From IMG/VR virus record IMGVR_UViG_3300030613_000016, positions 1-47,712 of that record: DNA of 47,712 nucleotides; one strand, written 5' to 3'. Made by a program: the position numbers and the translations under genes. The notes beneath the pieces are model-generated. The model had not been told where the DNA came from. It saw only the letters and a list, made by a program, of their open reading frames with translations, and ran no database searches. Of the stretch, positions 17,475 through 38,964 are shown piece by piece (positions within the stretch are counted from its first letter, which is position 1; each line of letters starts with the position of its first letter). The stretch is from a virus. Lineage: Duplodnaviria; Caudoviricetes.

Positions 17475-19088
17475 ATGATAGCCAAGATTAAAGAAAATGA
17501 TTTAAAGATTTTTCAGGTCTTATCTCATCCGATTGGATGTGCCGAAACTATGTTTCATGATTTTGAGTCATTAGGAATATTTGATAAGAATAAATTCGGG
17601 CATATTCGTGTTTATCAATATCCTATGTTAAGTTATGATAATTTATTTTTAAATGACCCCAAATTATCTAAAGAAAAAAACATAGAAATAAAAAATAATT
17701 TAGCCGAAAGTTATAATCTTGGAGGTCGTCTTACAGGTAAATCAATTGTTTCTATTACAATAGATGTATTAGTTTGTACTTTTAATCAAGTTTATAAATG
17801 GGCTGTTATTTCTTCTTATGATAAACTTCATGTAATGGAGATTTTTGAAAAATTAATTAATTCTTTTGAAAATCATAAAATAATGAAAATTTTAAATTAT
17901 CATCCTTTGCGTAGTCCGACTTATAAATTAAATTTTGCAAGTGGATTATTATTAGAAAGTGTAAATCAAAATATTACTGGAAAGAATCCAGGTGGACAAT
18001 ATTTTGGTAAGCACTATGACAGACAATACATGGAAGAATCAAGTTATCTTAATAAAGATGTTTCTGGTAAAATGCTTATGGCACAATCTGAAAATGGATG
18101 TATAAATCGTTTTTCTGGTATGACTACATTTACAAAAACATCTCCAGTAGGTGAGATATTTTTTGACCTCAAGAATAAAAAGAAAATAATTAATCTTCCT
18201 TCTTATATTAATCCTACGTGGAATGATAAAAAAGAAGCCGATGCTATAAAAGAATTCGGTGGCAAGGATTCTCCAGGTTATCAGGTTCAAATCGATGGTA
18301 AAGTAATTGAAGGAGCAGAAAGTGTATTTGATATTCAGAGAATTAGACAAACTTATATTTTGGATAAAAAAGGAATGGGAATACCTATTAAATCATTTGA
18401 GGTAAACAAAGATTCATTTTTTAGATATAAAGAAATTGTTATTGTTGAAAAACCAATCAATGCAGAATTTTTAGGAATTTATTTTGACGTGGGAGAAGGC
18501 GGTGCCCCTTCGGAATATATTATAATTTCCAAAACAAATCAAATTTATAGATATATATATCGGATTACTACCTTTCAATTATCACCAGATGAAGAACAAC
18601 AATTTGGAGATTATCTAATAGAAATATTACAACCAAATATTATTGGTTTAGACCATTCAAGTGGAGTAGGAAAAGCATTATATAGTCATTTTATTAAAAA
18701 ATATCCCGAAAATATAATTCCTGTAGATTTTAATGCAAACATAGAAATAGATTTTGAACGAGATGCAAAAGGTAAAGAACTAAGAGATAATGAAGGACAT
18801 CCAATTATGAAAAAAGCTAATATGATAGATTGGTCTATTCAATGTTTAAAGAATCTATTCTATAATAAAAAGATACAAATGTATGAAGACATTAAGTTTG
18901 ATACACAAGTGAACAATGTTATTACTGTTAAAAGTAAACAAGGAAAAATGTTATATTCTTGTAAAACTGCAAACCATTTATTTCAAGCCTTCCAAGTGTT
19001 TGCGATTTGTGATTTTTTAACAGAATTGAAAAATATTAAACCTATACAAAAAAAGAAACCAGGATTGGGTGCATTTGGGAGTGCTTAA
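17475..19088 (+). CDS. terminase large subunit
   Basis: Walker A GGRLTGKS, Walker B-like YMEE, nuclease YFDVG and IGLDHSSGVG. Confidence 0.75.
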   Translation: MIAKIKENDLKIFQVLSHPIGCAETMFHDFESLGIFDKNKFGHIRVYQYPMLSYDNLFLNDPKLSKEKNIEIKNNLAESYNLGGRLTGKSIVSITIDVLVCTFNQVYKWAVISSYDKLHVMEIFEKLINSFENHKIMKILNYHPLRSPTYKLNFASGLLLESVNQNITGKNPGGQYFGKHYDRQYMEESSYLNKDVSGKMLMAQSENGCINRFSGMTTFTKTSPVGEIFFDLKNKKKIINLPSYINPTWNDKKEADAIKEFGGKDSPGYQVQIDGKVIEGAESVFDIQRIRQTYILDKKGMGIPIKSFEVNKDSFFRYKEIVIVEKPINAEFLGIYFDVGEGGAPSEYIIISKTNQIYRYIYRITTFQLSPDEEQQFGDYLIEILQPNIIGLDHSSGVGKALYSHFIKKYPENIIPVDFNANIEIDFERDAKGKELRDNEGHPIMKKANMIDWSIQCLKNLFYNKKIQMYEDIKFDTQVNNVITVKSKQGKMLYSCKTANHLFQAFQVFAICDFLTELKNIKPIQKKKPGLGAFGSA

Positions 19089-21403
19089 TGCTTAATTTTG
19101 CTGTAATGAATATTGCTAATGTAGGAAGAGAAATATATGTTTGGCATAGAATTGGCAGAACTCTTTCTTGTTTTAAGGATAAAACTTTCTACCCATATTT
19201 TTATTCTGTTGACCCTAAAGGACTTTTCCGCACAATAGACAATAAAAAAGTTAGTAAAGTAGTTTGTAGTCACCCTTCTGATGTAAAAAATAGAAGAGAC
19301 GAGAATTCTTATGAAGCCGATATTTTATTTACTAAACGATATATTATAGATAAGATAACTTCGTTTGATAAGGCAGATTTAAAGTATTCTTTTGTAGATA
19401 TAGAAGTTCTTACTAAAGAATTACCCAATTATCTTTATCCTGAACAACCTATAAGTTGTATTAGTTGTAGTAATTCTTATACAAGAGAGATTAAGACTTT
19501 TTGGATAAAAAATTATCAACCAGAGCAAATGGAAGACAATGAATCGGCGGAAAAAATATTATTAGATGAATTTATTAAATGGATAAAAGAACAACAATTT
19601 GATTTGATTTTAGGTTGGAATTTTATTGAATTTGATTGGCGTTATCTTTGTGCTCGTTATAAAAAAATATTTGGTTGTGAATTAGCAGAAATGCTTAGCC
19701 CAATTAATCAATCTCGTTATTTAGGAAGTTCTAAGCAAGAAATAGAACCTAATCTAATTCCAGCAGGATTAAGTATTATGGATTATTTAGAAATGTATAA
19801 AAAGATTTATCGTACAGAATCTTCTTATGCATTAGATATGATTGCTCAAAAACATCTAAATGACAAAAGTTTTAAAAAGGTAGATTTTAGTAGATTGTCT
19901 GATGAAATTAAAGAAAAAAATATAAATGATGTAAGAAGAATGATAGATATTGAGAAAAAACTTAAAATTATTGAATATTATGATGAACTTAGGCGTATGA
20001 GTATGTGTGAATGGGCAGATGTTACCTGGAATAGTAAGATGTTAGATATAATTCTTTTACGAGAAGCTAAACAAAAAGGAATAATCTTACCTTCTAAACA
20101 TTATGGAGAAGGAATTGAAGTAGAAGAAATAGGATTTGAGGGGGCTTATAGAAGGTGTGATACTGGTCTTTATAAAGGATTGTATAAACTCGACCTTTCT
20201 TCAGCTTATCCAATGGCAATTATTAATTTCTGCCTGGATATTTCAAACATTAAAAATGAAGGAATTACCATAAACAAGGTAAAATTTTACCAGAATGAAA
20301 ATGCTTTACTTCCTACGATTGCAAGAAAGTTAATTAGTAAAAAAGATATTTTAAAATCGCAACTTAAATCTGCAAATCCAGAATTAGAAGAAACTAAAGA
20401 TTTACAGATTAAATATAATGCAATTAAAGCTGTAGTTAATTCACTTTTTGGAGTATGTGGATTGAAGATTTTTAGATTATTTGATTATAGAGTAGCTGCA
20501 AGTATTACATTTTTAATTAGGGATTTATTACACTACATTGAAGATGAATTGAAAAAACGTAGTGTAAATGTAATTTATATAGATACCGATTCATTTTTTA
20601 TTGAATCTAGAGATAATCCAAAAGATTTATGCAATGAATTAATAAAACAATGGGCAAAAGAAAAATATAATAAAGATAAAATAGATATTGTATTTGATTT
20701 AGAAGGTCAGTTTGAAAAACTTTTTATTATTGCTTTATGCCATTATAAAGGATATTTATCTACACCAAAAGGTGTAAAAGAAGAAATAAAAGGTATTGAA
20801 GCTCGTAGAAAGGATAGTTCTAATTTTATCAGAGAATTCCAAACTAATCTTATAGAAAAAATAATGAATGAAGAACCAATAGAAGAATGTGTTAAATGGA
20901 TTAATTCAGAAAAAGAAAGAATTAAAACATTACCATTAATAGATATTGGATTTCCTTGCAGAATTTCTAAAACAGAAGGATATAAATCAATTCCAATTTT
21001 TTTAAGAGCTTTACAATATACGCAAGAATTAGTACCTACTTTTCAGAAAAATACTGGAGACAGTTTTTATTGGTTGCCAGTTATTCCCTTTGGTACATCT
21101 ATAAGAAAATCTAGTAGAAATAAAACTGATAAGGAAACTGGAGAAAAATCGATACAATCTTCAGAAAAAGAAGTTAATAAAGATGTTCTATGTTATGATG
21201 AAGATTGTTATGAGCATATTAAGGAAGTAAATTGGGAAAAAGTAATTGATAAGAGTATCACAATGAAATGTGAAGCAATCTTTTTGGCATTAAAATGGGA
21301 TTTATCTTTAATAAAAGAAATTAAACCTAAAAAAGAACGGAAAAACAAAATACCTACAGAAGAAGAACTCAATGAAGAACTTAAAAAAAGAGGACTAATT
21401 TAA
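19088..21403 (+). CDS. polB: family B DNA polymerase
   Basis: Exo FVDIE and GWN...FD; motif A DLSSAYP, motif B KAVVNSLFG, motif C YIDTDS; KGIEARRKD. Confidence 0.95.
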   Translation: MLNFAVMNIANVGREIYVWHRIGRTLSCFKDKTFYPYFYSVDPKGLFRTIDNKKVSKVVCSHPSDVKNRRDENSYEADILFTKRYIIDKITSFDKADLKYSFVDIEVLTKELPNYLYPEQPISCISCSNSYTREIKTFWIKNYQPEQMEDNESAEKILLDEFIKWIKEQQFDLILGWNFIEFDWRYLCARYKKIFGCELAEMLSPINQSRYLGSSKQEIEPNLIPAGLSIMDYLEMYKKIYRTESSYALDMIAQKHLNDKSFKKVDFSRLSDEIKEKNINDVRRMIDIEKKLKIIEYYDELRRMSMCEWADVTWNSKMLDIILLREAKQKGIILPSKHYGEGIEVEEIGFEGAYRRCDTGLYKGLYKLDLSSAYPMAIINFCLDISNIKNEGITINKVKFYQNENALLPTIARKLISKKDILKSQLKSANPELEETKDLQIKYNAIKAVVNSLFGVCGLKIFRLFDYRVAASITFLIRDLLHYIEDELKKRSVNVIYIDTDSFFIESRDNPKDLCNELIKQWAKEKYNKDKIDIVFDLEGQFEKLFIIALCHYKGYLSTPKGVKEEIKGIEARRKDSSNFIREFQTNLIEKIMNEEPIEECVKWINSEKERIKTLPLIDIGFPCRISKTEGYKSIPIFLRALQYTQELVPTFQKNTGDSFYWLPVIPFGTSIRKSSRNKTDKETGEKSIQSSEKEVNKDVLCYDEDCYEHIKEVNWEKVIDKSITMKCEAIFLALKWDLSLIKEIKPKKERKNKIPTEEELNEELKKRGLI

Positions 21404-22275
21404 TGGATTTATCTAAATTAACTAATGAAGAATTATTAAAACTTAAATCTAAATTCGCAGGGGAAGTGTCGAAAAAGACATACGGAACTTCCAGTTCCGA
21501 GAGTAGCGTGCAAGTCGCTAACCCTGCTCCAAAAATTAGTAAACGACCTTCTTATACTCAAGATTTTATAAAAGTAGAAATACCCAAAGCCAATGAATAT
21601 AATAAAGAAATAGATTTAAAAGATTTAGAAATCAAACAAATTGATTATTCATTAGCTAAAATATTTATCAAAGAAAATCATTATTCTCATACAATTCCGT
21701 CTTCGGTAAAAGTTTCTTTAGGATTTTATTATAAAGAAGAATTAAAAACAGCGATAATTTATGGTGCACCTGTAGGAAGAAATGTTACAAATTGGTTACA
21801 GGTGGAACATTCTAATTGTTTAGAATTAGTAAGATTATTTTCGGCAGAAGGTATGCCAAAAAATACGGAAAGTTATTGTATTAGTAAGTCATTTCAATTT
21901 TTAAAACAAAATTACCCCCAATATAAATATTTAATTTCTTATGCAGACCCCAATCATGGACATTGTGGATATATTTATCAAGCAACGAATTGGAAATATG
22001 TAGGAATTCAAAGAAGAATCTTAAAAGAAAGAATCATATTAATCGATGGAAAAGAAGTTCATTCTCGAACTTTAAATGCAAAACATGGGTCTAATGCTGA
22101 TGATAAATTAAAAGAAATTTATGGGGATAGATTAGAAATTAAAGGAGCATTAAAAAAATATGTTTATCTTATGTGCTTGGGAAATCATAAAGAATGTAAA
22201 GAATGGTATAATAAATTTACTTTTTTGCCTTATCCAAAAGCTCATAATGATATTATAGAAGGAAAAGCACAATAA
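21403..22275 (+). CDS. mom: Mom-family (GNAT-fold) DNA adenine modification protein with tRNA-encoded N-terminal extension
   Basis: HYSH, ELVRL...KNTES..IS, LISYADPNHGHCGYIYQATNW.YVG; TAATG coupling to polB. Confidence 0.85.
   Translation: MDLSKLTNEELLKLKSKFAGEVSKKTYGTSSSESSVQVANPAPKISKRPSYTQDFIKVEIPKANEYNKEIDLKDLEIKQIDYSLAKIFIKENHYSHTIPSSVKVSLGFYYKEELKTAIIYGAPVGRNVTNWLQVEHSNCLELVRLFSAEGMPKNTESYCISKSFQFLKQNYPQYKYLISYADPNHGHCGYIYQATNWKYVGIQRRILKERIILIDGKEVHSRTLNAKHGSNADDKLKEIYGDRLEIKGALKKYVYLMCLGNHKECKEWYNKFTFLPYPKAHNDIIEGKAQ
21457..21531 (+). tRNA. tRNA-Gly(UCC)-like, non-canonical, nested in frame in mom
   Basis: Acceptor GCAGGG/CCCTGC plus T-CCA; D stem GTGTC/GACAT; anticodon stem CGGAA/TTCCG with loop CTTCCAG; T stem TAGCG/CGCTA with loop TGCAAGT; 75 nt. 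Confidence 0.85.
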
Positions 22276-25908: not shown

Positions 25909-26436
25909 ATGGCAAATCATGAAGATAGACCTATAAGAGATACAATACATTTGTTATTGGCTTTTCGAAGAAGAAAAAATAATCCCGATTTAACTAATGA
26001 ATGTATTAGAGTGGTTATTAGTGATTATAATCTGGATTTATTTTTATTAAAAGAAAAATGTAAAAAATTAGGTGGAACTTGGAGAATTCATCATACAGTT
26101 AATGCAAGAGATACTAAAAAAGCAAGAATTTGGATATTACATAAACTTATAGAAACCTCGCAATTTGATGGTTGTATTGATTCTATTTGGAAAACAGCAT
26201 TATTACAATCTGAATGTAAAGCAGAAAATAATTTTATGTTTGATGTAGATACAAAAGATAATAATGAACTTATCCAAGTTTTAGATTTAATACCAGACAA
26301 AATAAAAATAGGTATAACTAAAACTCCTAATGGACATCATATAATTACAAAATCTTTTGATTCTCGGAAAGTTTTAGAATTATCTTATGTTACTTTAGTT
26401 AGAGATGGATATTATTTTCTTGAAGAAATTAAATGA
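25909..26436 (+). CDS. hypothetical protein with AEP/Prim-Pol-like motifs
   Basis: FMFDVD and TPNGHHII resemble the VIDVD/TPHGKH motifs of the primase at 9244. Confidence 0.4.
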   Translation: MANHEDRPIRDTIHLLLAFRRRKNNPDLTNECIRVVISDYNLDLFLLKEKCKKLGGTWRIHHTVNARDTKKARIWILHKLIETSQFDGCIDSIWKTALLQSECKAENNFMFDVDTKDNNELIQVLDLIPDKIKIGITKTPNGHHIITKSFDSRKVLELSYVTLVRDGYYFLEEIK

Positions 26437-26729
26437 TAATTAAATCTTTAAAGATTAATAATCTACAACTTATTAAATCTGCCGAAACTACTTTCGATAA
26501 GATTAACATTGTCTCAGGAATTAATCGAGACAATCCAAATGAAAGCGGTAATGGTTCGGGCAAATCTACTTTCGTCTTGCGAGCTATTTTATTTTGCCTT
26601 TATGGCTATTGTGAAGAAGGTCTTACTTTAAAAGATTTAATTCGTTTTGAAGAAAAAGAAGCAAGTGTGGAAATTGAATTAGAAAAAGATAATAAAACTT
26701 ACAAAATAATTAGGAAAATAGAATTATGA
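26433..26729 (+). CDS. SbcC/Rad50 ATPase, N-terminal half
   Basis: IKSLKINN, Walker A GNGSGKST, AILFCLYG, VEIEL...YKIIRK. Confidence 0.9.
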   Translation: MIIKSLKINNLQLIKSAETTFDKINIVSGINRDNPNESGNGSGKSTFVLRAILFCLYGYCEEGLTLKDLIRFEEKEASVEIELEKDNKTYKIIRKIEL

Positions 26730-27265
26730 AAAAACATAAATGTATAGATTGCGATAATTTAGTTAATTATGGATATTCTAGATGTAAATCTTGTGCTATG
26801 AAACATAATTGGAAGATTGGGCTTTATTCAGAAAGAATAATAATAGGTATAAATAATCCAAATCATAAAAAAGGATATTTCTGTATAGATAATTATTGTA
26901 AATGTGGAAGAAAAATTTCATCAGCTACAGCAGCATACGGTAAAAAAAGATGTTCTATATGTTCTCACAAAGAAGATTTAAACGGAAGTTATATAGATGG
27001 TAGAACAAAGAAATGGAAAAAAGTTAGTAAACAATGTCTTGAACGAGATAATTTTACTTGTATTTTATGTAAGATAAAAGGAATATATTTACAAGCACAT
27101 CATATTATTCATAGAAAAAACTGTATTGATATTTATGATATTAAAAATTTAATAACTTTATGCAGGAACTGTCATGCACAGATGACTAGAATAGAGTTTT
27201 CTAATGAATATTTATTTTATAAAAAAATATTCTTAAACTATATTAAAAATGAAAACAACTCTTAA
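26726..27265 (+). CDS. HNH homing endonuclease inserted in sbcC
   Basis: Zn fingers; ERDNFTCILC, AHHI...NLITLCRNCH. Confidence 0.9.
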   Translation: MKKHKCIDCDNLVNYGYSRCKSCAMKHNWKIGLYSERIIIGINNPNHKKGYFCIDNYCKCGRKISSATAAYGKKRCSICSHKEDLNGSYIDGRTKKWKKVSKQCLERDNFTCILCKIKGIYLQAHHIIHRKNCIDIYDIKNLITLCRNCHAQMTRIEFSNEYLFYKKIFLNYIKNENNS

Positions 27266-28427
27266 AATTTGTGTAGATAATCAAGAGATTCAATTTAATA
27301 CCAATACAATAGGACAAACCTATTTAGAAGAAATTATTGGTACATTAGATTTTTTCCGTTCTTATAGATGTGTTGATAATCGCAATGGTCTTAATTTATT
27401 AGACATGGGGATTGTAACACTTCGGAAATCGATGATGTCTTTTATAGAGGGTCTGTTTACAGACATTCGAACACGATTATTAGCACAAAAAGTAGAAAGA
27501 GAAAGATATTCGATAGATAAAAAATTATATAAACATTATCTTTCTGTGAAGCGATTAGACATCCTAAATGCTTCATTAGATGAAATAAAAAAAGATTATC
27601 AAAAATTTGAAATAGAAAAAGATAAACAAAATGGAATTATCAATCAGATTAGGTCAGAAATCTCAAGTAGAGAAAAAATTATTTATTATAAACAACAAGA
27701 AATGAAAAAAATAGATGAAGGAATTTGTCCTGTTCTTAAAATTAAATGCGAAAGAATTGCTCCAAAGAATAAGCCAAATACTTTGGGTATAACTAAAGAA
27801 ATAGACATATTAACAGGAGAAATAAATATTTATAATAAACAATTAGAATCTGAAGAAGAATCAATAGAGTATTATGATGATACTTTATCTGTTCTTCGTA
27901 ATAAAGAAAGTAAAGCAAGAGAAAAATTATTAAGATTAAAGGATGCCTTCCAATTTAAAGATTATAAATATACAAAAGCTGATATAGTTATCTATGATGA
28001 AGCAATTAAAATCTTAGATTCGTTTGCTGGAAAGTATATAAAAGAATGGTTATCTTCTCTTTCTGTAATTATAAATAATTTATTACAACCTATCAACATT
28101 TCTATAGAATTTACTGCGGATAAAGATTTTTTACATGTCTTCGATAATCAACAAATGTTAAAGTATGACCAATTATCTAAAGGTCAGAAAACATTTTTAG
28201 GATGTTTATTTAAATTTGCTATCTTAATGCAACAAAATAAATCAGGGGTAGTAATTTTAGATGACGGACTTAATGATATTGATTGGATTAATTTTAAAAA
28301 TTTAATAAACATAATTAAAACTCTTCCATTTCAAGCTATTTGTGTATATCAGGGATTACAAGAAGAAATAGAAAATACTAAACATTTTACAGTTATCAGA
28401 GAAAAAAGGGTAAGTCATGTTAAATAA
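27249..28427 (+). CDS. SbcC/Rad50 ATPase, C-terminal half
   Basis: Coiled coil, hook-like GICPV...C, signature LSKGQK, Walker B VVILDDG. Confidence 0.85.
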   Translation: MKTTLKICVDNQEIQFNTNTIGQTYLEEIIGTLDFFRSYRCVDNRNGLNLLDMGIVTLRKSMMSFIEGLFTDIRTRLLAQKVERERYSIDKKLYKHYLSVKRLDILNASLDEIKKDYQKFEIEKDKQNGIINQIRSEISSREKIIYYKQQEMKKIDEGICPVLKIKCERIAPKNKPNTLGITKEIDILTGEINIYNKQLESEEESIEYYDDTLSVLRNKESKAREKLLRLKDAFQFKDYKYTKADIVIYDEAIKILDSFAGKYIKEWLSSLSVIINNLLQPINISIEFTADKDFLHVFDNQQMLKYDQLSKGQKTFLGCLFKFAILMQQNKSGVVILDDGLNDIDWINFKNLINIIKTLPFQAICVYQGLQEEIENTKHFTVIREKRVSHVK

Positions 28428-29298: not shown

Positions 29299-29922
29299 AT
29301 GTTAAAAACCCAATTTAAAGACAAATTAGAATTCGATATTTATCTCACAGAACAAAAAGTTCGACAAGAAAAAAATTATCTTAGTGTCTCAGAAAGAAAT
29401 CAATTGAAATCTATGCAAGAAAAGGATTATAAACCTACTTTTATTAAAGAAAAAAAATCAAAACTTCCTATAATTACTAACATAGATGAATTAAGAAAAC
29501 CTTGCCAAGAAGTAACTAAAGAAGATAATATAAAAGAAATTGTACAAAAATTAAAAGATACTCTAGAAAGTGTAGGGGGATTGGGTCTTACTGCTAATCA
29601 GATAGGAATTAATAAGAGAATTTCTTATGTAAAAATTCCTAAATTTATAAATAAAGAAATTCAATATAATGAATTTATTTTAATTAATGCGAAAATTATT
29701 GAAAAAGAAAGACCTATAAAAGTTAATAATGAAGGATGTTTGTCTTTTCCTGAAGTTTATGTAGATACTTTAAGATATGTTTTTTGTACTGTAGAATCTT
29801 TAAATGAAAAATTAGAATTACAGACAAATTTATATCAAGACCTTGAAGCTCTTGCGATACAACATGAGTGCGACCATCAGAATTCGAAAACTATTTTTGA
29901 TAATAAATGGAGGGCTAAATGA
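29299..29922 (+). CDS. def: peptide deformylase
   Basis: GLGLTANQIG, EGCLS, QHECDH. Confidence 0.93.
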   Translation: MLKTQFKDKLEFDIYLTEQKVRQEKNYLSVSERNQLKSMQEKDYKPTFIKEKKSKLPIITNIDELRKPCQEVTKEDNIKEIVQKLKDTLESVGGLGLTANQIGINKRISYVKIPKFINKEIQYNEFILINAKIIEKERPIKVNNEGCLSFPEVYVDTLRYVFCTVESLNEKLELQTNLYQDLEALAIQHECDHQNSKTIFDNKWRAK

Positions 29923-30581
29923 TTGAAATATTATTTCTACTAAGTCTTTTAGTGTGTATCATAATACATGAATTGGCTCATTTTTTTGCTGCAAAAATAG
30001 TAAAATGTAAAGTAAAAGAATTTGGTATCGGTTTTGGTTCTGCTATTTTTAAATTTATGTATAAGGGCACCTGTTATAGATTGAATTGGATTCTTTTAGG
30101 GGGATATAATAAATTAGATAGTGAATTATCTTATAGTAAAAATAAACATGCATTTAGTAATTTAAAATATAGAAATAAATTATTTATTTCTTTAGCAGGA
30201 ATAAGTGTTAATATTATTGTAGGTCTTATGGCTTATTTTATAGGAAAATACAGTATAAATCATCATTTAATTATGTTTGGATTTATTAATTTATTTTTTG
30301 GAATACTGAATATAGTTTTGGGAATTACTAATTTAATTCCTTTTCCTGCATTGGATGGAAGTTATCCTATTTTAGTTTGGTTAGAAAAAATATATGGCAA
30401 ACAAAAAGGTTATAGATTGATGAATAAGATAGTTAATAAAGGAATGAAAATATTAAATGATTTTAATAAAATAACATTAACTATTTTATGTACTCTTTAT
30501 AGACATCAAATACTTGATTATATTATTGCTGGGTTAAGTAATTTTATAAAATTTTTAGGAAAAATAAAAGGAGTATTATAA
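29919..30581 (+). CDS. site-2 protease (M50, RseP-like)
   Basis: HELAH, FGIGFG, AG..VN, NLIPFPALDG. Confidence 0.9.
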   Translation: MIEILFLLSLLVCIIIHELAHFFAAKIVKCKVKEFGIGFGSAIFKFMYKGTCYRLNWILLGGYNKLDSELSYSKNKHAFSNLKYRNKLFISLAGISVNIIVGLMAYFIGKYSINHHLIMFGFINLFFGILNIVLGITNLIPFPALDGSYPILVWLEKIYGKQKGYRLMNKIVNKGMKILNDFNKITLTILCTLYRHQILDYIIAGLSNFIKFLGKIKGVL

Positions 30582-30805
30582 TGATAAGAATATTACTTTA
30601 TTTATTAGAAAAAATTCCTTATAGAACAAAATGGGGTCTTTCTCTTGCTGATGAATTAAAATATTTTTATTATTATAAAATAGGGCAATATAAAAATCCT
30701 CCAAGATGTTTATGTGGAGGAATAATTCGTACTTATGGAGCAATTTATCCTGAAGGATATACTATTGAATGTTCAAATTGCCAATTACTTATAGATGAAG
30801 ATTAA
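30581..30805 (+). CDS. hypothetical zinc-binding protein
   Basis: CLCG...CSNC. Confidence 0.5.
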   Translation: MIRILLYLLEKIPYRTKWGLSLADELKYFYYYKIGQYKNPPRCLCGGIIRTYGAIYPEGYTIECSNCQLLIDED

Positions 30806-31342
30806 ATGAAAATAAAAAATATATTTAATAAATTATTAACTTTTATTCTCCCAATTGCAGGAGGTATCTTGGGTGCAATGGGAGGGGCTGGAAATAAGTC
30901 TTTAAGAAGAATATATATACCTCTTTTATTAACTGGATTGGCTTATGCAGAATTTGAACATATTGCAGTTTTGAGTATAATGATAATGTGTGCATGGCTT
31001 TCTATGGGTTACGGAATACCTGAGCCTGATGGAAGTGATGTAGGAAGTTTGCTGGGGAGATTTTATTATAAATTATTTAATCAAAATCATAAATTAGCAG
31101 ATATTTTTACAAGAGGTACAATAGGATTATTAATTACTTTTTCTTTAATTTCTATTCCTATAATTAATCATAATTGGTTAGTTTATGGACTTGGGTCTTT
31201 AGGAATAATTTTAACGCAATCTTTAATTAGTTGGAGAGGATTTGGTACATTTAAATTATTTGGTAAAGAATTATCTTGGGTAGAATTTACAACTTGGGGA
31301 TTAATAACATTATTTGCTGTTTTAATTATAAAAATAAAATAA
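30806..31342 (+). CDS. multi-pass membrane protein
   Basis: Several TM helices; GG...RR and SMGYG motifs. Confidence 0.65.
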   Translation: MKIKNIFNKLLTFILPIAGGILGAMGGAGNKSLRRIYIPLLLTGLAYAEFEHIAVLSIMIMCAWLSMGYGIPEPDGSDVGSLLGRFYYKLFNQNHKLADIFTRGTIGLLITFSLISIPIINHNWLVYGLGSLGIILTQSLISWRGFGTFKLFGKELSWVEFTTWGLITLFAVLIIKIK

Positions 31343-31485
31343 TATGAAACATTTTTATTTTAATAAAAAACAAAATAATTATGCTTTAGCAATTTCATTT
31401 GAAATATTTTATCTTACAAAATCAATTAAATGGATTTATTTAGATATAAATTTTCTTAATTTTTATATAACAATAATAATATAAA

Positions 31486-32184
31486 ATGAAAATTAAATTT
31501 CTTAAAAAAATTAAATCTGTTAGTTTCATGGATACAATAAATCTGTATATGGAGATTTTTCCGCATGATTGGGATTACATTCCTGTTATTCGAAGATTGT
31601 TAAATAAAAATCCTAATAAAAATCGTAAACTTTATTTATTAGTTGCAGAAGAAAATAAAAGAATTATCGGGGGTTGCTTATATAGTTATTGGAAAGATAC
31701 TAAATTAGGTTTGCTAGAATATTTATTTGTAAAACAAAATATGAGAAGTAAAGGTATTGGTAGTAAACTTTATTTAAAAATGCAAAAAGAATTAAAAAAG
31801 AAAAATTGTAAACATTTAATTTTTAATATAGCAAACGATAAAAATTTTAAAAAATCAATAACCGAAGAAGAAATCAAAATTCGTCAGCGTAGATTAAAAT
31901 TTTATGAAAAATTAGGAGCAAGACCAATAAATCATTTTATTTATGAAAATCCATTAAGATGGTGTCGAATACAAGAAGATTATCATCCTTCTTATTTAGC
32001 AATGGATAGTAATTTTTCGGATAAAATAATAGGGGGGGAACTTTATAAAATAGTTAGAAGATTTTATAAAAGATTTTATTATGGAGCCAATTCCAATAAT
32101 AATAAAATTGCTCGTAAAATATTAAAATCAATCAATAAAAAAATAGATTACAATTTAAGACCTATAACTTATATTAAAAAATGA
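31486..32184 (+). CDS. GNAT acetyltransferase
   Basis: LEYLFV...RSKGIGSKL; RLKFYEKLG. Confidence 0.85.
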   Translation: MKIKFLKKIKSVSFMDTINLYMEIFPHDWDYIPVIRRLLNKNPNKNRKLYLLVAEENKRIIGGCLYSYWKDTKLGLLEYLFVKQNMRSKGIGSKLYLKMQKELKKKNCKHLIFNIANDKNFKKSITEEEIKIRQRRLKFYEKLGARPINHFIYENPLRWCRIQEDYHPSYLAMDSNFSDKIIGGELYKIVRRFYKRFYYGANSNNNKIARKILKSINKKIDYNLRPITYIKK

Positions 32185-33407
32185 ATAAAAAAATGTTTTG
32201 GATTTATATTCTTTCGGCTTCAATTTATTTTACACAGGGAATAGAAGGATTACCAGGATTAAGCCTATTCTTTTATCTTAAAGAAAAATTAGGTTTTACT
32301 CCTGAGAAAATAATGTATATTGGAACTATTGCATCTCTAAGTTGGACGATAAAACCTTTATGGGGCTATTTATGTGATAATTTCTTGTCTAATAAAATGT
32401 GGATTGTCCTCTCCTTATTAGGTAGTATTAGTATTACTCTTTATTTCGGATTAACTTCTTTCTTACCATTATCACTTTTAGTGATATTATTATCACTAGC
32501 AAGTTTTAATGCAGCTTTAAGAGATGTGTCAGTTGATGGAATAATGTGTATTGATGGAAAAGAAACTAATACTTGCGATAAAATTCAAGCAATCCAGTGG
32601 ACTTCAATTACCGTAGCATCTATTTTAGTTGGTTTAGGTGGTGGATATATAGCAGACCATTTTACTTATAAAATAGGTTATTTATGTCTTGTTCCTATTT
32701 ATTTACTTATTATGAGTATTGTACTACGATATAGAACAACTGTACCACAGAATAGAACAGATGGATTTGTCATTTCAAAAACTGCAAAATGGGTTTCTAA
32801 TTTTACTCCACCCACAGAATCACTTTTCTGGAATACTATTAAATCCTATAAAGAATTATTCATAAATAAAGGATTTTTAATTGCATGTTTATTTTTATTT
32901 TTATATAAATATAATCCTTCTTTTGGAACTCCTTTATCATTTATTGAAAGAGATATTTTTAAATGGTCTGGTCAATGGATGGGAACATTAGGAGCAATTG
33001 TATCTTGTTTTGAAATTCTAGGAGCAATTTTGTTTTTTAAATTGTGTAAAAAAATCAATATTAAAAAATGGCTTTATATTTCTGTATTCTTAGGAGCAAT
33101 TACTACATTGTGTTATCTAAAATTTACTCCAGTAACTGCGGTTGTTTATGGAGTATGCTTTTCTGTTTTGGGAATGTTTGTACATTTAATAGTAATGAGT
33201 TTTATGGCAAAATCTACAATTTCTGGTAAGGAAGCCACAAGTTTTGCATTACTTTGTTCAATTTCAAATTTGGCAGGAACTACATCTTCTTTATCAGGAG
33301 CTTTTCTCTTTCCAAAAATAGGATTACAACCATTAATTATAGTATCAGCATTAACTAGTTTTTTATGTTTACCTCTAATTAATAAACTGGAGATTAAGAA
33401 TGGATAA
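32181..33407 (+). CDS. MFS transporter, folate-biopterin (BT1)-like
   Basis: About 12 TM; YFTQG, WTIKPLWG..CD, DVSVDG, EATSFAL..SISN. Confidence 0.85.
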   Translation: MNKKMFWIYILSASIYFTQGIEGLPGLSLFFYLKEKLGFTPEKIMYIGTIASLSWTIKPLWGYLCDNFLSNKMWIVLSLLGSISITLYFGLTSFLPLSLLVILLSLASFNAALRDVSVDGIMCIDGKETNTCDKIQAIQWTSITVASILVGLGGGYIADHFTYKIGYLCLVPIYLLIMSIVLRYRTTVPQNRTDGFVISKTAKWVSNFTPPTESLFWNTIKSYKELFINKGFLIACLFLFLYKYNPSFGTPLSFIERDIFKWSGQWMGTLGAIVSCFEILGAILFFKLCKKINIKKWLYISVFLGAITTLCYLKFTPVTAVVYGVCFSVLGMFVHLIVMSFMAKSTISGKEATSFALLCSISNLAGTTSSLSGAFLFPKIGLQPLIIVSALTSFLCLPLINKLEIKNG

Positions 33408-34047
33408 TTCATTTTTAGAAAAATTTAAAGAACAGACTAAAGAAGAAATATCTAAACTAAATTATAAGAAATATTTTTATCAATATGACGAACCAAGCAA
33501 ACTTATATTAGCAAAAGAAATGAAAGATATAGAAACATATTTTAAAACAGAATTAGAATTAGATGTTTATCCAGTTTATGGTACATTATTAGGCATGGTT
33601 AGAGATAATGATTTTATAGGGTGGGATACAGATATTGATTTGGCTTATCTAAGTAAATGCCATACTAATAAAGCAGTAATGAATGAATTTAATATGATTT
33701 GTAAATTTTTAGAAGAAAGAAAATTATTATTATATCGTATAAAAACTGCTAGTCATTTACATGTATATTCTCCTACAAAATATTTAAGAATAGATTTATG
33801 GATTTCTTGGATTGATGAAAATAATAAGTATCATTTAGTATGGACTGTTTCTGGAGATATTGATTCTTCTATGATTTTACCTTTTAAGACTGTAGAATTT
33901 AAAAACCAAACTCTTCGACAAATGAATGACCCAATGAAATTTATAAATGAACATTATCCTAATTGGAATATTCCTATAGGTGGCGAGGCAAAAGATTGGG
34001 CTAAAAGAAAACCAAGATTTGAACTAGAACCCTGGCATGGAAAATAA
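33400..34047 (+). CDS. LicD-family phosphotransferase
   Basis: YGTLLGMVRDNDFIGWDTDIDL. Confidence 0.88.
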   Translation: MDNSFLEKFKEQTKEEISKLNYKKYFYQYDEPSKLILAKEMKDIETYFKTELELDVYPVYGTLLGMVRDNDFIGWDTDIDLAYLSKCHTNKAVMNEFNMICKFLEERKLLLYRIKTASHLHVYSPTKYLRIDLWISWIDENNKYHLVWTVSGDIDSSMILPFKTVEFKNQTLRQMNDPMKFINEHYPNWNIPIGGEAKDWAKRKPRFELEPWHGK

Positions 34048-34666
34048 AGGAGGAAATATGTATAAGAAAGAAGAAGAAAAAGAAGAAATTGGTAAAAAAG
34101 AAGACCGATATGGAGAAGAATTTTATTATAAACTTTTGAATAAACATAGATATATTCTTCTTTATGATGAGATTCATAATTGTTCTGCCGATGTAGTCTG
34201 TTCTAAATTAAGGGCTATGGATATTCTCGGTCATAAACCTATCTATCTCGAAATTAATAGCCCTGGGGGGTCTGTAGCGGATGGTATGAGCATCATTAAT
34301 ACTATAGAACATATTAAATCTCCAGTTATTACAATTATAAGTGGTCAAGCATGTTCGATGGCTGCTTTAATTAGTATTTGTGGTGATTATAGAATGATAT
34401 ATTCTAACTCATATTTTATGCAGCACTCTACTTCTGATATAGTTGGAGATTATATAAATTATATTAAAGATAGAACAAAATTTCTTTGTGAATTCGAACA
34501 TCGTACTGAAAAAATACTCAAATTAAAAACTAAATTAACCAGCAATGATATTATGAAGATTAGAACTGGAGAACTTTGGTTGTCGGCAGACCAATGCCTT
34601 GCAAAAGGAGTGGTAGATAAAATAATTAGTTTTAAACCTAAAAAATTTAAAAAGATACAATTATGA
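34037..34666 (+). CDS. clpP: ClpP-family protease
   Basis: INSPGGSV, ACSMA, FMQH, WLSADQCL..GVVD. Confidence 0.88.
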   Translation: MENKGGNMYKKEEEKEEIGKKEDRYGEEFYYKLLNKHRYILLYDEIHNCSADVVCSKLRAMDILGHKPIYLEINSPGGSVADGMSIINTIEHIKSPVITIISGQACSMAALISICGDYRMIYSNSYFMQHSTSDIVGDYINYIKDRTKFLCEFEHRTEKILKLKTKLTSNDIMKIRTGELWLSADQCLAKGVVDKIISFKPKKFKKIQL

Positions 34667-35274
34667 AAAAATTTTGGGTAATTAAATCAAATATTAACAG
34701 AAGACGCATAAAAAATAAATCTTTATTAAAATATTATTATTTAATTAAAAATTATTCTATTAGAAAAATAGCAAAAATCTTTAATGTAAATAATTCTACC
34801 ATAAGTAGAACTTTAAAACGAATGAATATTAAAACAAAATATAGATTAAAAATAAATCAAAATACCATGTATAAATTATATTATATTAATCATTTTTCGA
34901 TGGAGCAAATAGCTCGAAAATTTAAATGTTCGAGAGGTGTAATATTTAGAATATTAAAATTATTATCAATAAAAATAAGACCTCAAAAATTTTATTCAAA
35001 AAAAGATAGAAATGGAAGGTGGTTAGGTGGTATTTCCTTCGACCCCTATTCTATAGAATGGACTAAAGAACTTAAAGAATCAATTCGTAAAAGAGATAAC
35101 CATACTTGTCAGATTTGTCATAAATTTGGTAAACATGTACATCATGTAGATTATAATAAAGATAACTGTCAAGAAGATAATCTAATTACTTTATGTTTAA
35201 AATGCCATGTAGCAACCAATTCAAATAGAGATTATTGGTATGCTTATTTTAAATATATAACTAAAGGAGTCTAA
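34663..35274 (+). CDS. HNH homing endonuclease with tandem HTH repeats
   Basis: SIRKIAK.., SMEQIARK; IRKRDNHTCQ, HHVDYNK..C...NLITLC. Confidence 0.9.
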   Translation: MKKFWVIKSNINRRRIKNKSLLKYYYLIKNYSIRKIAKIFNVNNSTISRTLKRMNIKTKYRLKINQNTMYKLYYINHFSMEQIARKFKCSRGVIFRILKLLSIKIRPQKFYSKKDRNGRWLGGISFDPYSIEWTKELKESIRKRDNHTCQICHKFGKHVHHVDYNKDNCQEDNLITLCLKCHVATNSNRDYWYAYFKYITKGV

Positions 35275-35275
35275 A

Positions 35276-35875
35276 ATTTACTATTTTATTTCCGATTGCC
35301 ATTTTGGACATTCTAACATCTTGCGTTACTGTAAAAGACCTTTTCTTAAAGAAGGAGATTTAGATTCTAAAGGAAATTGGGTATCTCAGTATATTGCTAT
35401 TCAAAGAACAAAAGAAATGGATGAAACTATTATAAAAAATTGGAATTCCAGAGTTAAAGATGGAGATATAGTATTTTTCTTGGGAGACTTCTGTTTATCC
35501 AAAAGTTCTGAAGCTCCTGATAGTAGAAAAGATGCTTTTGATTATTATCGTTCACAATTAAATGGAGATATTATTTTCTTTAAAGGAAACCATGATGGTA
35601 ATAATAAATGCAAATCAATTATTGAAAGTATTGTTATTAATCATGGTGGAAAAAGAATTTATTTAACACATAATCCAAAATTTGCCAAAGAAGATTTTCA
35701 TTGGAATTTCTGCGGACATACTCATGGTAATGAAGGAACTTTTAAAAAATTAGGAAGAAAATCTGTTATTATAGATTTATCAGTTGATTGCTGGGAATTT
35801 CGACCTGTAGATATTAATGAGATTAATCAAGCATATAGTGAATGGTGCCGAAGAGGATGTAAAGAGGAGAAATAA
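35276..35875 (+). CDS. calcineurin-like metallophosphoesterase
   Basis: FISDCHFGH (upstream of the track start), LGDF, GNHD, THNP, GHTH; probable ATT start after AAGGAG. Confidence 0.85.
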   Translation: MYYFISDCHFGHSNILRYCKRPFLKEGDLDSKGNWVSQYIAIQRTKEMDETIIKNWNSRVKDGDIVFFLGDFCLSKSSEAPDSRKDAFDYYRSQLNGDIIFFKGNHDGNNKCKSIIESIVINHGGKRIYLTHNPKFAKEDFHWNFCGHTHGNEGTFKKLGRKSVIIDLSVDCWEFRPVDINEINQAYSEWCRRGCKEEK

Positions 35876-36597
35876 TGAAAACTGCACTTATTACGGGAAG
35901 TACTAAAGGTATAGGAAAAGAAATAGGATTGGATTTATTAGATAAAGATTATCATGTTACTTTTAATTATACACATGATACTAAGGGTGCCGAACTATTA
36001 AAAAAACAATTAGATGACCCTAGATTACCTAGAATAAAAGGAGATTATCAAATCATAAGAGCAGATTTATCTTACATAGATGATTTAGAAAAAATTATAA
36101 AAGATATTTATAAATTGGATGTTTTAATTTTAAATGCAGGAATAACTGATAGAACTCCATTTGGAAAAATTGCATTAGAAAATTGGAATCATATATTAAA
36201 TGTAAATTTAACTAATCAATTTTTTTTAATTCAAGAGTTAAAAGATAAAATTAATCCTAATGGAAAAATAATATTTATTTCTTCTATTTCTGGATTAACT
36301 ACTGATTCAACTTCTATTGCTTATGGAGTATCAAAAGCAGCAATAAACATGTTAATTCCTTATTTAGCAAAAGAATTTGCAAATAAAAAGATTACAGTTA
36401 ATGCAATAGCACCTGGATATATAGCAACAGAATGGCATAAAGGCAAATCTAAGGCACAAATTAAAAGAATAGAGAAAAAATGCATTGCTAATAGATTGGG
36501 CACTCCAGAAGAAGTTTCTAAAGCGGTTTTAAGTATAATAGATAATGATTTTATTAATGCTCAAATAATAAGGGTGGATGGGGGATTTTTAGTATGA
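35875..36597 (+). CDS. SDR oxidoreductase (FabG-like)
   Basis: TGSTKGIG, LNAG, YGVSK, VNAIAPG, VDGG. Confidence 0.92.
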   Translation: MKTALITGSTKGIGKEIGLDLLDKDYHVTFNYTHDTKGAELLKKQLDDPRLPRIKGDYQIIRADLSYIDDLEKIIKDIYKLDVLILNAGITDRTPFGKIALENWNHILNVNLTNQFFLIQELKDKINPNGKIIFISSISGLTTDSTSIAYGVSKAAINMLIPYLAKEFANKKITVNAIAPGYIATEWHKGKSKAQIKRIEKKCIANRLGTPEEVSKAVLSIIDNDFINAQIIRVDGGFLV

Positions 36598-37082
36598 CTA
36601 TAAGAGAATTCGACCCTAAAAAAGAACTAATCTTTGACCTTAAAGTATGTGAAGCCTGTAAAAGTTGTAAACGCTATGGACTTACTGGTTGTTGCCCACC
36701 TACAATTGGAACATTTGAATACTATAAGAAACTATTAAAACGTTATACCTATGGAAAAGTATTTGTAAAAAAATTTGTTGTAGATGACCCCAAAAATTGG
36801 CAAGAATTAGGTAGACAATCTTCATTAGAATTACATAAAATTTTATTAAAAGAACGTAAAAAATTATTAGATAAAGGGCATTATTTCAATGTTATTCTGG
36901 GGGGTGGTTCCTGTAAATATTGTAAAGAATGTTCTATACCATGTAAAATGCCACAATTTCGTGCTATTCCTATTGAAGCAACTGGAATAAATGTAGTAGA
37001 AACTTTAGCAAAAATGAGAATATTTATTAAATTCCCTATTAAAAAGATATTCTATAGAACGGGGGCAATTTTATGGGATTAA
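36594..37082 (+). CDS. DUF2284-like metal-binding protein
   Basis: C..YG...CPP; GGSCKYCKEC; PIEATGINV. Confidence 0.7.
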   Translation: MTIREFDPKKELIFDLKVCEACKSCKRYGLTGCCPPTIGTFEYYKKLLKRYTYGKVFVKKFVVDDPKNWQELGRQSSLELHKILLKERKKLLDKGHYFNVILGGGSCKYCKECSIPCKMPQFRAIPIEATGINVVETLAKMRIFIKFPIKKIFYRTGAILWD

Positions 37083-37525
37083 AAAAAGTAATTTATACTT
37101 CTGGAACTTATGATTTATTTCATTATGGGCATTTAAATATTTTTCTTAAAGCTAAAGCATTAGGAGATTATTTAATCGTAGGAGTTTCTACAGATGCACT
37201 TATTAAAAAATACAAAGGTATAAAACCTATTATTTCTTATAAAGACAGAGTAACTATTATTGAAGAATTAAAATGCGTAGATAAAGTAATAAAACAAGGA
37301 AAGTTTTTTGATGTAAACCAATTAAAAAAGTATAACATTTCAACTATTGTCTTAGGGGATGATTGGAAGGATAAAACTTTTCCCGAATTAGAAAAATGTC
37401 TCAAAAAATTAAATATTAAAATGATTTATGTGTCATATACTAAAAGATTATCAACATCTAAAATTAAAGAACAAATAATTCGCAATGCTGTAGAAATTAT
37501 TGCAGCACAAACTAAACGAAAATGA
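37073..37525 (+). CDS. glycerol-3-phosphate cytidylyltransferase-like (TagD family)
   Basis: GTYDLFHYGH, VGVSTD, GDDW, YT..LSTS.IK. Confidence 0.9.
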   Translation: MGLKKVIYTSGTYDLFHYGHLNIFLKAKALGDYLIVGVSTDALIKKYKGIKPIISYKDRVTIIEELKCVDKVIKQGKFFDVNQLKKYNISTIVLGDDWKDKTFPELEKCLKKLNIKMIYVSYTKRLSTSKIKEQIIRNAVEIIAAQTKRK

Positions 37526-38133
37526 ATTATAAAATAGCAATACTTATAACTACTTTTTTAAGAGATAATTTATTGTATAAAACCATACAAACAATTGTAG
37601 ATAATTATACAAAAGATTGTATAGTTCTTATTGCAGACCAGGGGTATGCAGATTCAGAAAAAGATATAATTATTGATTACTTTACTTCTCAAATACCCTT
37701 AGAGTATTATAAATTATCTTTTGATTGTGGATTAGGTTATGCTCGTAATTTTCTAGCACAAAAAGCATTTGAAATGGAAATTCCTTATAGTTTAGTTATG
37801 CCCGATTCTATTCAATTTACTGAAGTCTATAATTTTGGACAATTGTTCAATTTATTAGACAATAATACTCTTATTAGTTTTGGAATTGTTCCATTTAAAG
37901 ATGTTTTTATAGCCAAAACTAATGCCTTATTAAATCTTTGGGATGAAGAACTAAAAATTTGTGAACATGAATTTGCTTATTTTAATTATATTAAAAGAAA
38001 TTATAAAGTTGTTTATAATACAAATTTTATTTTTAAAAAAGTAAAATCTCGGTCTTCAGATGAGTACCAATCTTATTCTAAAAGAATTAAAGAATATAAG
38101 AAATTATCAGAGCAAAAACTTAAATGTATATAG
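37522..38133 (+). CDS. glycosyltransferase family 2-like
   Basis: ILITTFLR, IADQG, GLGYARN, WDEELK.CEH. Confidence 0.7.
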   Translation: MNYKIAILITTFLRDNLLYKTIQTIVDNYTKDCIVLIADQGYADSEKDIIIDYFTSQIPLEYYKLSFDCGLGYARNFLAQKAFEMEIPYSLVMPDSIQFTEVYNFGQLFNLLDNNTLISFGIVPFKDVFIAKTNALLNLWDEELKICEHEFAYFNYIKRNYKVVYNTNFIFKKVKSRSSDEYQSYSKRIKEYKKLSEQKLKCI

Positions 38134-38288
38134 GAAAATCGTTATTAGTGAAACACGAAGATAAGATAATGAAGGGAATAGTTACCAAAATATATAATGA
38201 AGATTTAGATATTAAATTAGAAGATGAAACTATTATCCAGAGAAAATTCTGGGAAATAAGGATAATTCCTGATGAAAAAAAAGAATAA
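38124..38288 (+). CDS. small SH3-like hypothetical protein (not in ORF track)
   Basis: MYIGKSLLVKHEDKIMKGIVTKI..., overlapping both neighbours. Confidence 0.45.
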   Translation: MYIGKSLLVKHEDKIMKGIVTKIYNEDLDIKLEDETIIQRKFWEIRIIPDEKKE

Positions 38289-38964
38289 AAAAGAAAAAAT
38301 AAAAGAAATAAAATTAGTCGATATAACCAAAATACGGTTTTCTCCAGAATTTGAATTTGAGATGCCTAATGAAAAAATCTCAGAAAAATTAATTGAACGT
38401 GGGAGAACTCTTAAAGGTTGGGAATTGAAAAATGATGGAAGTTTAAACTCAGGTATAGAAATCAGTCCTGAAAATAATAATCATCTTTTTTATAACAAAG
38501 ACTCCTTAATGCAAATTAAAGAAATATTAGCATTGGTTAGAGTTTATCGTGGAAAAGCCTTACCAACTTGTGGATTACATATTCATGTATCAACAAAATC
38601 TATGTCAGACAAACAAATATTAAATTTAATTAAAGAATGGGTTCATCGCCAAAAATTTATTATTAAAAGATTTGGCACATCTAAATTACGTCTCGAAGAA
38701 ACATGTAAATTATTACCCAAAAATGAATTGCATAAATTAACTGAAAAAGAAATACATCAATTTAGAAATAATTTGAGAACATCATTTCAGTCATACGGAT
38801 ACCTTGACGAAAAATATTACAGTCTTTCAGCAATTCATTTACCAAAAAATGATTACGGAACATTGGAATTTAGATGTTTTGAAAGTACTACCAATTTTAA
38901 AGAAATAAAATCTATTATTTATTTTGTTTTGAATTTTGTTCAGGAGGCACTTGAACGTGAATAA
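38272..38964 (+). CDS. putative amidoligase (COOH-NH2 ligase type 2)
   Basis: EFEFE, WELKNDGSL, EISP, TCGLHIHVS, TLEFR. Confidence 0.8.
   Translation: MKKKNKKEKIKEIKLVDITKIRFSPEFEFEMPNEKISEKLIERGRTLKGWELKNDGSLNSGIEISPENNNHLFYNKDSLMQIKEILALVRVYRGKALPTCGLHIHVSTKSMSDKQILNLIKEWVHRQKFIIKRFGTSKLRLEETCKLLPKNELHKLTEKEIHQFRNNLRTSFQSYGYLDEKYYSLSAIHLPKNDYGTLEFRCFESTTNFKEIKSIIYFVLNFVQEALERE

Follow-up and report, generated by a model that had tools for sequence, protein, structure and literature searches.

A tRNA-Gly-like RNA within a phage mom gene: a candidate glycyl carrier for DNA modification

The polB-mom locus

The window analysed here is the whole of a 47.7 kb virus record (IMG/VR record IMGVR_UViG_3300030613_000016), in which a gene of the Mom family of DNA-modifying enzymes contains an RNA element of 75 nucleotides (nt) resembling a glycine tRNA. 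A first-pass annotation had placed a 75-nt cloverleaf at 21457-21531, with anticodon TCC at 21490-21492, discriminator base U73 and an encoded CCA, inside the open reading frame (ORF) at 21403-22275, and both sequence and fold bear this out. The features of the locus and the evidence for each are as follows (GlyRS, glycyl-tRNA synthetase; pLDDT, the predicted local distance difference test score of AlphaFold models).

19088..21403, plus strand: family B DNA polymerase gene (polB); Pfam DNA_pol_B 1e-25, PHROG 262
21403..22275, plus strand: mom-family gene, 290 amino acids (aa), predicted Gly-tRNA-dependent DNA adenine aminoacyltransferase; Pfam Mom, PHROG 1384, 8BV8 by profile and Foldseek
21403..21456, plus strand: 18-codon leader (MDLSKL...KF), which accompanies the element ahead of different Mom catalytic domains; alignment, tree, low pLDDT
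21457..21531, plus strand: tRNA-Gly-like RNA, 75 nt, equal to mom codons 19-43; fold z -4.27, covariation in 17 distinct relatives, 97 bits with the family model, of which it is a training member
21490..21492, plus strand: anticodon TCC, with C35 and C36 as GlyRS identity elements; sequence
21509..21515, plus strand: T-loop TGCAAGT, with TGC replacing TTC; sequence
21528..21531, plus strand: discriminator U73 (T at 21528) and encoded CCA (21529-21531); sequence
21622..22239, plus strand: Mom catalytic (GNAT) domain, residues 74-279; Pfam, alignment, 8BV8 profile

The element starts 54 nt past the mom ATG and its GC content is 53%, compared with 26% across the remainder of the gene. From its end as far as 21700 there is no in-frame ATG, GTG or TTG at which translation could restart. 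Upstream, the polB stop codon TAA (21401-21403) shares bases with the mom start (TAATG) and a GAGG lies at 21390-21393; because stop and start overlap, the two genes are likely to be translationally coupled. Promoter-like sites near the mom gene are at chance level, with 14 found against 16.8 expected.

The homology of the ORF to Mom, as the first-pass annotation had it, is readily demonstrated. The Pfam Mom family (PF25680) matches residues 74-279 with an e-value of 1.7e-42 and 145.8 bits, compared with a curated cut-off of 27.1, while PHROG 1384 matches the mom product at 1.8e-52. When a profile of 21 close Mom relatives was compared with the PDB the sole match was Mu Mom (8BV8, 1.1e-25), and in a Foldseek search with the AlphaFold model 8BV8 occupied ranks 1-2 (E 5.4e-15), the next GNAT following at 3.5e-5. 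The modelled protein is therefore a Mom-family member with a predicted GNAT fold closest to that of Mu Mom. Six of nine key Mu Mom residues are kept, namely H93, Y94, R144, S157, D182 and Y192, corresponding to Mu H58, Y59, R111, S124, D149 and Y159; the residue list is that of section 13 of PMC13219725, and the offset in 8BV8 chain numbering was inferred from the HY motif. Residues 14-62, the element's peptide included, are predicted to be disordered (pLDDT <50).

Structure of the RNA element

The minimum-energy fold of 21457-21531 is a cloverleaf of -30.4 kcal/mol (z -4.27), equalled by none of 200 shuffles. It comprises a 6-bp acceptor stem followed by a G7·A66 mismatch, A8 A9, a 5-bp D stem, an anticodon arm of 5-7 bp and a 5-bp T stem. 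An acceptor stem of 7 bp had been annotated originally: six of these pairs are present and the seventh is not, G7 being opposite A (21463/21521). All bases of the bacterial GlyRS identity set, also part of that annotation, are in place. The set consists of G1-C72, C2-G71, C35, C36 and U73 (PMC9976931), and the window element holds it complete.

What the first-pass annotation took for an ordinary tRNA gene is nevertheless a deformed one. The invariant core of canonical tRNAs (U8, G18G19, T54-psi55-C56 and a paired 7-66) is missing from the window element: it has A8 instead of U8, a 6-nt D-loop (GAAAAA) without GG, and TGC rather than TTC in the T-loop, while positions 32-38 and 33-37 of its anticodon loop are able to pair. 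The lost features are those needed by the tRNA elbow and for decoding, and from its sequence the element looks unfit for the latter. Consistent with this, ARAGORN at its default setting finds no tRNAs across the window, and Rfam (RF00005) gives no tRNA match in the window up to an e-value of 5. ARAGORN at an 80% threshold does call the element, as one of 18 calls in the window, but such calls were rejected as evidence, being too noisy at 189 over 85 loci and the window. The element-family model matches a single copy in the window, in agreement with the first-pass annotation, in which no second was seen. The element is thus a tRNA-Gly-like RNA, deformed, and not a canonical tRNA.

Selection on the RNA

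A DNA pattern search, in which the CCA and U73 bases were left free, retrieved 5 viral and 21 metagenome stretches containing 17 distinct elements including that of the window. Adding a pattern for the 5' half contributed two more, giving a clade of 19, while a corrected pattern for the 3' half returned the known contigs and one further copy of a known element. Across the 17 distinct elements 95.3% of cells are paired, compared with 34-49% in slid controls, and none of 500 shuffles reaches the observed value. Fourteen of 24 pairs are changed on both sides, including six of seven in the anticodon arm; compensatory changes are present in all four arms, whose stems are full-length, while pair 7-66 is open in all 17 elements. 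The peptide encoded over the anticodon arm, on the other hand, varies freely among relatives, so that the stems covary while the peptide drifts, as the first-pass annotation had anticipated. Synonymous sites tell the same story: in seven genes of the closest Mom group, four of six fourfold-degenerate third positions are invariant within the element and none of 18 elsewhere.

In the clade of 19, G1-C72, C2-G71, an NCC anticodon and CCA are universal and U73 is present in 18. The anticodon is TCC in 17 and ACC, still glycine, in the two added copies. U8 is never found, the T-loop has TGC in 11 and TTC in three, and U33 is kept. These data show that the cloverleaf and the GlyRS identity bases are under selection at the level of the RNA. 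A scan of viral contigs with a single protein found no relative, and the pattern of the window's clade had no matches in GTDB contigs, so that this exact form was not found in those genomes.

Linkage to mom and DruA-like genes

All clade elements except one lie in or beside a gene for a Mom protein (15, two of them by motif only) or for a DruA-like protein of the DruA/DUF4338 family (PF14236; three). They are placed at the 5' end of mom, at the 3' end of a DruA-like gene, or at the joint of PolB-Mom and PolB-DruA fusions. Single ORFs joining PolB, the element and a Mom or DruA-like domain (P0016, P0130 and L112:215-3514) suggest, by their arrangement, that modification may be coupled to replication. 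A profile of the element peptide with its flanks retrieves 34 proteins, of which 25 contain Mom and six DruA domains (31/34). In a Mom tree of 121 cores built with FastTree, from which three of 124 rows with short cores were left out, the module of leader plus element occurs in four separate parts; catalytic domains therefore appear to have been swapped behind it. One phage (L001:2899-4887) has two different tandem mom genes, each with an identical leader and element and both with a common short tail, an arrangement that suggests duplication of the cassette with the catalytic part swapped.

Several further observations concern the mom genes themselves. Frameshifted mom genes lie next to an intact element in L098 (minus strand, just downstream of 2500-2574), L161:2070-2690 and L242:3465-4000; sequencing error, decay or a programmed shift are all possible. 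In many large phages (many among L032-L082) a stretch of 5 kb holds two or three mom paralogues. A canonical tRNA-Arg(TCT) at L077:3028-3102 begins 6 nt past the end of the Mom match. Finally, the Mom N-termini of P0074 and P0023 and the C-termini of P0083 and P0091 resemble tRNA-Gly read in other frames.

A wider family

The frequency of the element was also assessed in loci chosen by Mom protein alone, taking the best 80 of 97 in GTDB. A model trained on the window's clade only matches in 15 of the 80, and after retraining there are 24 matches, comprising 21 elements and three ordinary tRNAs. All 21 elements are on the mom strand. One lies 555 nt upstream, and the others are no more than 100 nt from an end of mom, seven at the 5' end and 13 at the 3' end (that of L179 taken from its ORF). 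Two reading frames are used, and some of the RNAs include the stop codon of mom. By title, the records belong to Acidobacteriota, Chloroflexota, Bacteroidota, Gemmatimonadota, Methylococcus and Acidimicrobiaceae. The association of a tRNA-Gly with mom postulated at first pass is therefore tight in the clade and at 21 of 80 GTDB loci, but absent at many other Mom loci.

Every one of the 21 GTDB copies keeps G1-C72, C2-G71, NCC and U73. Other features are less constant: TCC is found in 13 and ACC in eight, CCA is encoded in 15, and U8 and U33 are present in six each. With ten ACC anticodons among the 40 copies of clade and GTDB together, position 34 is free. By eye, 20 of the 21 (13 as parsed by script) show an A bulging from the T stem, at the EF-Tu binding site; in the window's clade the G7·A66 mismatch, two pairs away, takes its place. 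When 25 copies are fitted to the model, both sides have changed in 20 of 23 pairs, bearing in mind that the fitting leans toward structure. Of 13 loci tested, five score high enough to pass as tRNA in Rfam.

The host genes are quite different, all 22 distinct host tRNA-Gly examined being canonical, with U8, U33, D-loop GG, TTC and unbroken stems, and two genomes with an element also hold canonical GCC, CCC and TCC tRNA-Gly. In 151 genomes of one phylum, with no more than 32 candidates scored per genome, there was no Mom-linked copy besides the known one, and after that copy all 23 other model matches were tRNA-Gly genes. Since some loci pass the Rfam tRNA score and the model's next-best genome matches are tRNA-Gly genes, the family is judged by sequence to descend from tRNA-Gly.

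Searching 1.84 billion proteins with a profile of the element peptide in the +1 frame retrieved 140 proteins. Mom is matched at E<=0.01 in 93 of these, and in 58 of the 65 with at least 150 aa, although the count is biased towards Mom, whose own PYPK end is where six of the 16 profile rows start. With one element as a blastn query against 50,697 phage records, the single match was the sole annotated tRNA of the cultured Salinibacter phage B2_17, a 76-nt copy situated directly past the stop of a Mom frame; in its deposited form this mom gene appears to be frameshifted. The GTDB-type element had no match in plasmids.

Nine IMG/VR virus records with Mom, 11-84% complete, were searched whole. Three contain intergenic free-standing copies (66-74 bits) at a great distance from mom; two of these copies directly precede a DruA gene, and one phage with such a copy also holds a separate canonical tRNA-Gly(TCC). 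Location inside the coding sequence, as first annotated, thus holds for the window and is not essential, relatives being found at the 3' end, behind the stop or free-standing; the intergenic copies show the ORF overlap to be optional, which favours action in trans. In one large phage the free-standing copy (L245:1380-1830), with anticodon ACC, lies in an extended intergenic region of raised GC content, which may hold other non-coding RNAs. A promoter-like motif seen by eye ahead of the free-standing copy in L244 was rejected, not being called by the scan. A tRNA-Gly(GCC) with A8 A9 in a large tRNA array (L227:1506-1577, minus strand) scores 56 bits with the family model, with no Mom in its 3-kb stretch.

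Comparison with known systems

The overlap of mom with a tRNA-Gly-like sequence is already in print, without a function. For 16 Dehalococcoides ssrA genomic islands and one marine fosmid, McMurdie et al. 2011 (PMC3146451) describe a mom homologue whose first 150 bp contain a 76-bp tRNA-Gly-like 'pseudo-tRNA' with anticodon DCC; in the passages considered here no function is proposed for it, and Mom was at that time regarded as a methylase. The window element is alike in its length of 75 nt, its position within the first 150 bp of mom and its TCC anticodon (TCC or ACC in relatives). Chloroflexota loci with the element (e.g. L130, L129), which score with the window-trained or the retrained model, share with those islands the order of mom, ParB and serine-recombinase genes, so that the likeness to the published copies lies in gene order and description. 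The window differs in that the gene is a phage one coupled to polB: its neighbours are polB and phage genes, with no ssrA integration module of ParB and serine recombinases around the element. Structurally, the window has the G7·A66 mismatch where most GTDB copies have the bulged T-stem A. Placement at the 3' end, free-standing copies and DruA partners are found here and not in those passages of PMC3146451.

As regards the donor, the first-pass annotation had named Gly-tRNA(Gly) for Mu Mom, and correctly: according to Silva et al. 2026 (PMC13219725), Mu Mom transfers glycine from Gly-tRNA(Gly) to the N6 of deoxyadenosine (N6-dA), and Gly-tRNA(Ala) is inactive. The window Mom resembles Mu Mom (8BV8, PF25680) in fold and family as well as in six of the nine key residues, and the same donor is predicted for it; unlike the putative arrangement in the window, Mu Mom uses host isoacceptors. 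The main text of PMC13219725 does not contain the terms 'tRNA-like', 'encoded tRNA' or 'mimic'.

A functional precedent is provided by the non-proteogenic tRNA-Gly(UCC) NP1-NP3 of Staphylococcus, which have TGC T-loops and are donors for FmhB, FemA and FemB (PMC7826273). The window element shares the UCC anticodon and the TGC T-loop, and the staphylococcal RNAs are reserved, as is proposed here, for a GNAT-type aminoacyl transferase. They are, however, chromosomal and free-standing, serve cell-wall synthesis and have a measured weak binding to EF-Tu (PMC7826273), whereas the window element is on a phage, overlaps the ORF of its enzyme, has no U8 and would feed DNA modification.

The second partner, DruA/DUF4338, accompanies two free-standing copies in addition to the three clade elements. 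The AlphaFold model of the DruA-like protein P0125 (pLDDT 87) has 8BV8 as its best match (E 1.8e-6), other GNATs being close (3.9e-5), and the element peptide in frame occurs in none of the 29 longer DruA relatives among the matches listed (of 119). DUF4338 has been called a GNAT elsewhere (PMC10853773).

Possible functions

Taking the sequence evidence together, we consider it probable that the element is a dedicated, non-translating glycyl carrier for its Mom enzyme. This interpretation rests on the retention of the bases read by GlyRS, the loss of elbow and decoding features, and the staphylococcal precedent. The window Mom is predicted to move glycine onto adenine in phage DNA, thereby blocking restriction. 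Mechanistically, the polB-mom mRNA would be translated through the element, while some transcripts would be cut at G1, in the manner of RNase P, and trimmed to the CCA, freeing the RNA. A transcript yielding the RNA could no longer yield Mom, because no in-frame ATG, GTG or TTG lies between element and catalytic domain. The released RNA would be charged by host GlyRS, and the loss of U8, D-loop GG and TTC, along with the helix defect at the junction of acceptor and T stems, would keep it off EF-Tu and the ribosome, so that the charged pool would be reserved for Mom. Glycyl transfer to N6-dA and rearrangement to 6-NcmdA (N6-carbamoylmethyl-deoxyadenosine) would follow, steps that are established for Mu Mom only. 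Since host GlyRS and host processing would presumably still be required by the locus, and Mu Mom accepts any host tRNA-Gly isoacceptor, the 'self-contained' cassette of the first-pass annotation was an overstatement.

More tentatively, and with somewhat less than even confidence, the idea may be generalised. Glycine tRNAs disabled for translation may form an unrecognised class of RNAs in phages and integrative elements across many phyla, where they would be private aminoacyl donors for DNA hypermodification and often overprinted on the gene of the consuming enzyme; DruA/DUF4338 would then be a second class of nucleic-acid aminoacyl transferases that depend on Gly-tRNA, and excision of the RNA from the mRNA would also act as a brake on enzyme synthesis.

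A number of observations weigh against a dedicated carrier. Mu Mom works without a private RNA and is supported by each of the three E. coli isoacceptors (PMC13219725). Mu R151 aligns with N184 of the window Mom, and W48 and W181 are likewise not kept; in Mu Mom, R151A is inactive (PMC13219725). The predicted handicap for EF-Tu is mild: by the table in PMC3239215 the three T-stem pairs of the window element total -0.2 kcal/mol compared with -1.1 for the commonest host tRNA-Gly stem, a weakening of about 0.9 kcal/mol that amounts to no strong exclusion, and G7·A66 lies outside that table. The counts of identity bases lean to the patterns and models by which the copies were found, and many copies are kin, so that the counts are not independent. 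In the clade, one copy (L088:626-763, minus strand) lies in a 45-aa ORF with no Mom or DruA-like gene in its 3.2-kb stretch, which may be read as the RNA outlasting, or working apart from, the enzyme. Finally, none of 78 IMG/VR Mom loci has the element within 2.5 kb, and it is missing from 59 of the 80 GTDB Mom loci and from six of the nine incomplete virus records searched whole, including the 5-kb record L008, whose Mom is 62% identical. The RNA is therefore not required by every Mom.

The alternative that best survives, although it seems unlikely, is control in cis. The cloverleaf would then act within the mRNA, either by being cut by RNase P and so keeping a toxic Mom in check, or by binding GlyRS or Mom and so making translation depend on the supply of glycine or tRNA. 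The position of the window element between start codon and catalytic domain suits this well, since with no restart codon up to 21700 a cut would silence the transcript. Equally, 20 of the 21 GTDB copies are within 100 nt of a mom end, and the base preceding G1 is a pyrimidine in 19/19 clade and 16/21 GTDB copies. A regulatory site would hardly be expected, however, to vary as these do in frame and in position (5', 3', behind the stop, in polB fusions) or to occur in intergenic regions far from mom, and a cut site has no need of C35, C36 and U73.

Rather improbable is the possibility that the RNA is not a working donor but buffers or inhibits Mom, similar to an antitoxin, or acts as a decoy for host enzymes directed against Gly-tRNA(Gly). 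It is speculated in PMC13219725 that Mom recognises tRNA-Gly by its acceptor end, and U73 and G71, both kept in the element, are read by the toxin TacT (PMC9976931); furthermore, many carriers are integrated elements in host genomes, where restraining Mom would help. Against this, invariant C35 and C36 indicate recognition by the synthetase and hence charging, and a decoy does not need to overlap mom in so many lineages.

It is more doubtful still that the element is an odd but working tRNA which tops up glycine decoding, replacing tRNA-Gly drained by Mom. GGA, read by UCC, is indeed the commonest Gly codon in ten long window ORFs (122/220), U33 is kept in the window's clade and some loci, as noted, score as tRNAs in Rfam. 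Such a role is difficult to reconcile with the absence of U8 throughout the clade, the rarity of TTC there, the missing D-loop GG, 32-38 pairing and ACC anticodons, or with the loss of U33 in 15 of 21 GTDB copies when all 22 host tRNA-Gly examined are canonical; one phage, moreover, carries a canonical tRNA-Gly(TCC) as well. Least of all do we favour a relic, be it a captured tRNA-Gly, an attachment-site remnant or a by-product of protein conservation, for although the family derives from tRNA-Gly and default tRNA finders reject the element, this reading is already disfavoured by the covariation, with its full-length stems and compensatory changes in all four arms, as well as by the invariant synonymous sites, the unstructured and frame-variable peptide and the lack of any match by the cloverleaf finder in 2.9 Mb of shuffled loci.

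The proposed carrier role joins the unexplained tRNA-Gly-like RNA inside mom (2011) with Gly-tRNA(Gly) as the Mom donor (2026). In a literature search that was thin on subscription journals no paper was found that proposes a donor role or joins PMC3146451 with PMC13219725; nor were the breadth of the family, its 3' and free-standing forms or the DruA link found in print. If the proposal is true, phages make an orthogonal charged-RNA cofactor that lets them protect their DNA and avoid competition with EF-Tu, and an enzyme and its co-substrate are encoded by a single stretch of DNA. It would also supply a candidate donor for the GNATs of the uncharacterised DruA/DUF4338 family, and aminoacyl-DNA chemistry could be traced by a marker RNA that tRNA finders overlook. 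Salinibacter phage B2_17 makes a cultured case available.

Other features

The 45-aa ORF of L088 sits between a polymerase-like gene and a RuvC-like gene (labelled by eye). Elsewhere in the window, the region 29299-38964 has accessory genes including a peptide deformylase, a second acetyltransferase, an unknown membrane protein, a ClpP-like protease, a FabG-like reductase, a nucleotidyltransferase and an amidoligase. At 26433-28427 an SbcC/Rad50-like gene, so labelled by eye, is apparently interrupted by a 179-aa HNH-type ORF (26726-27265), and several further HNH-like ORFs are found in other parts of the window.

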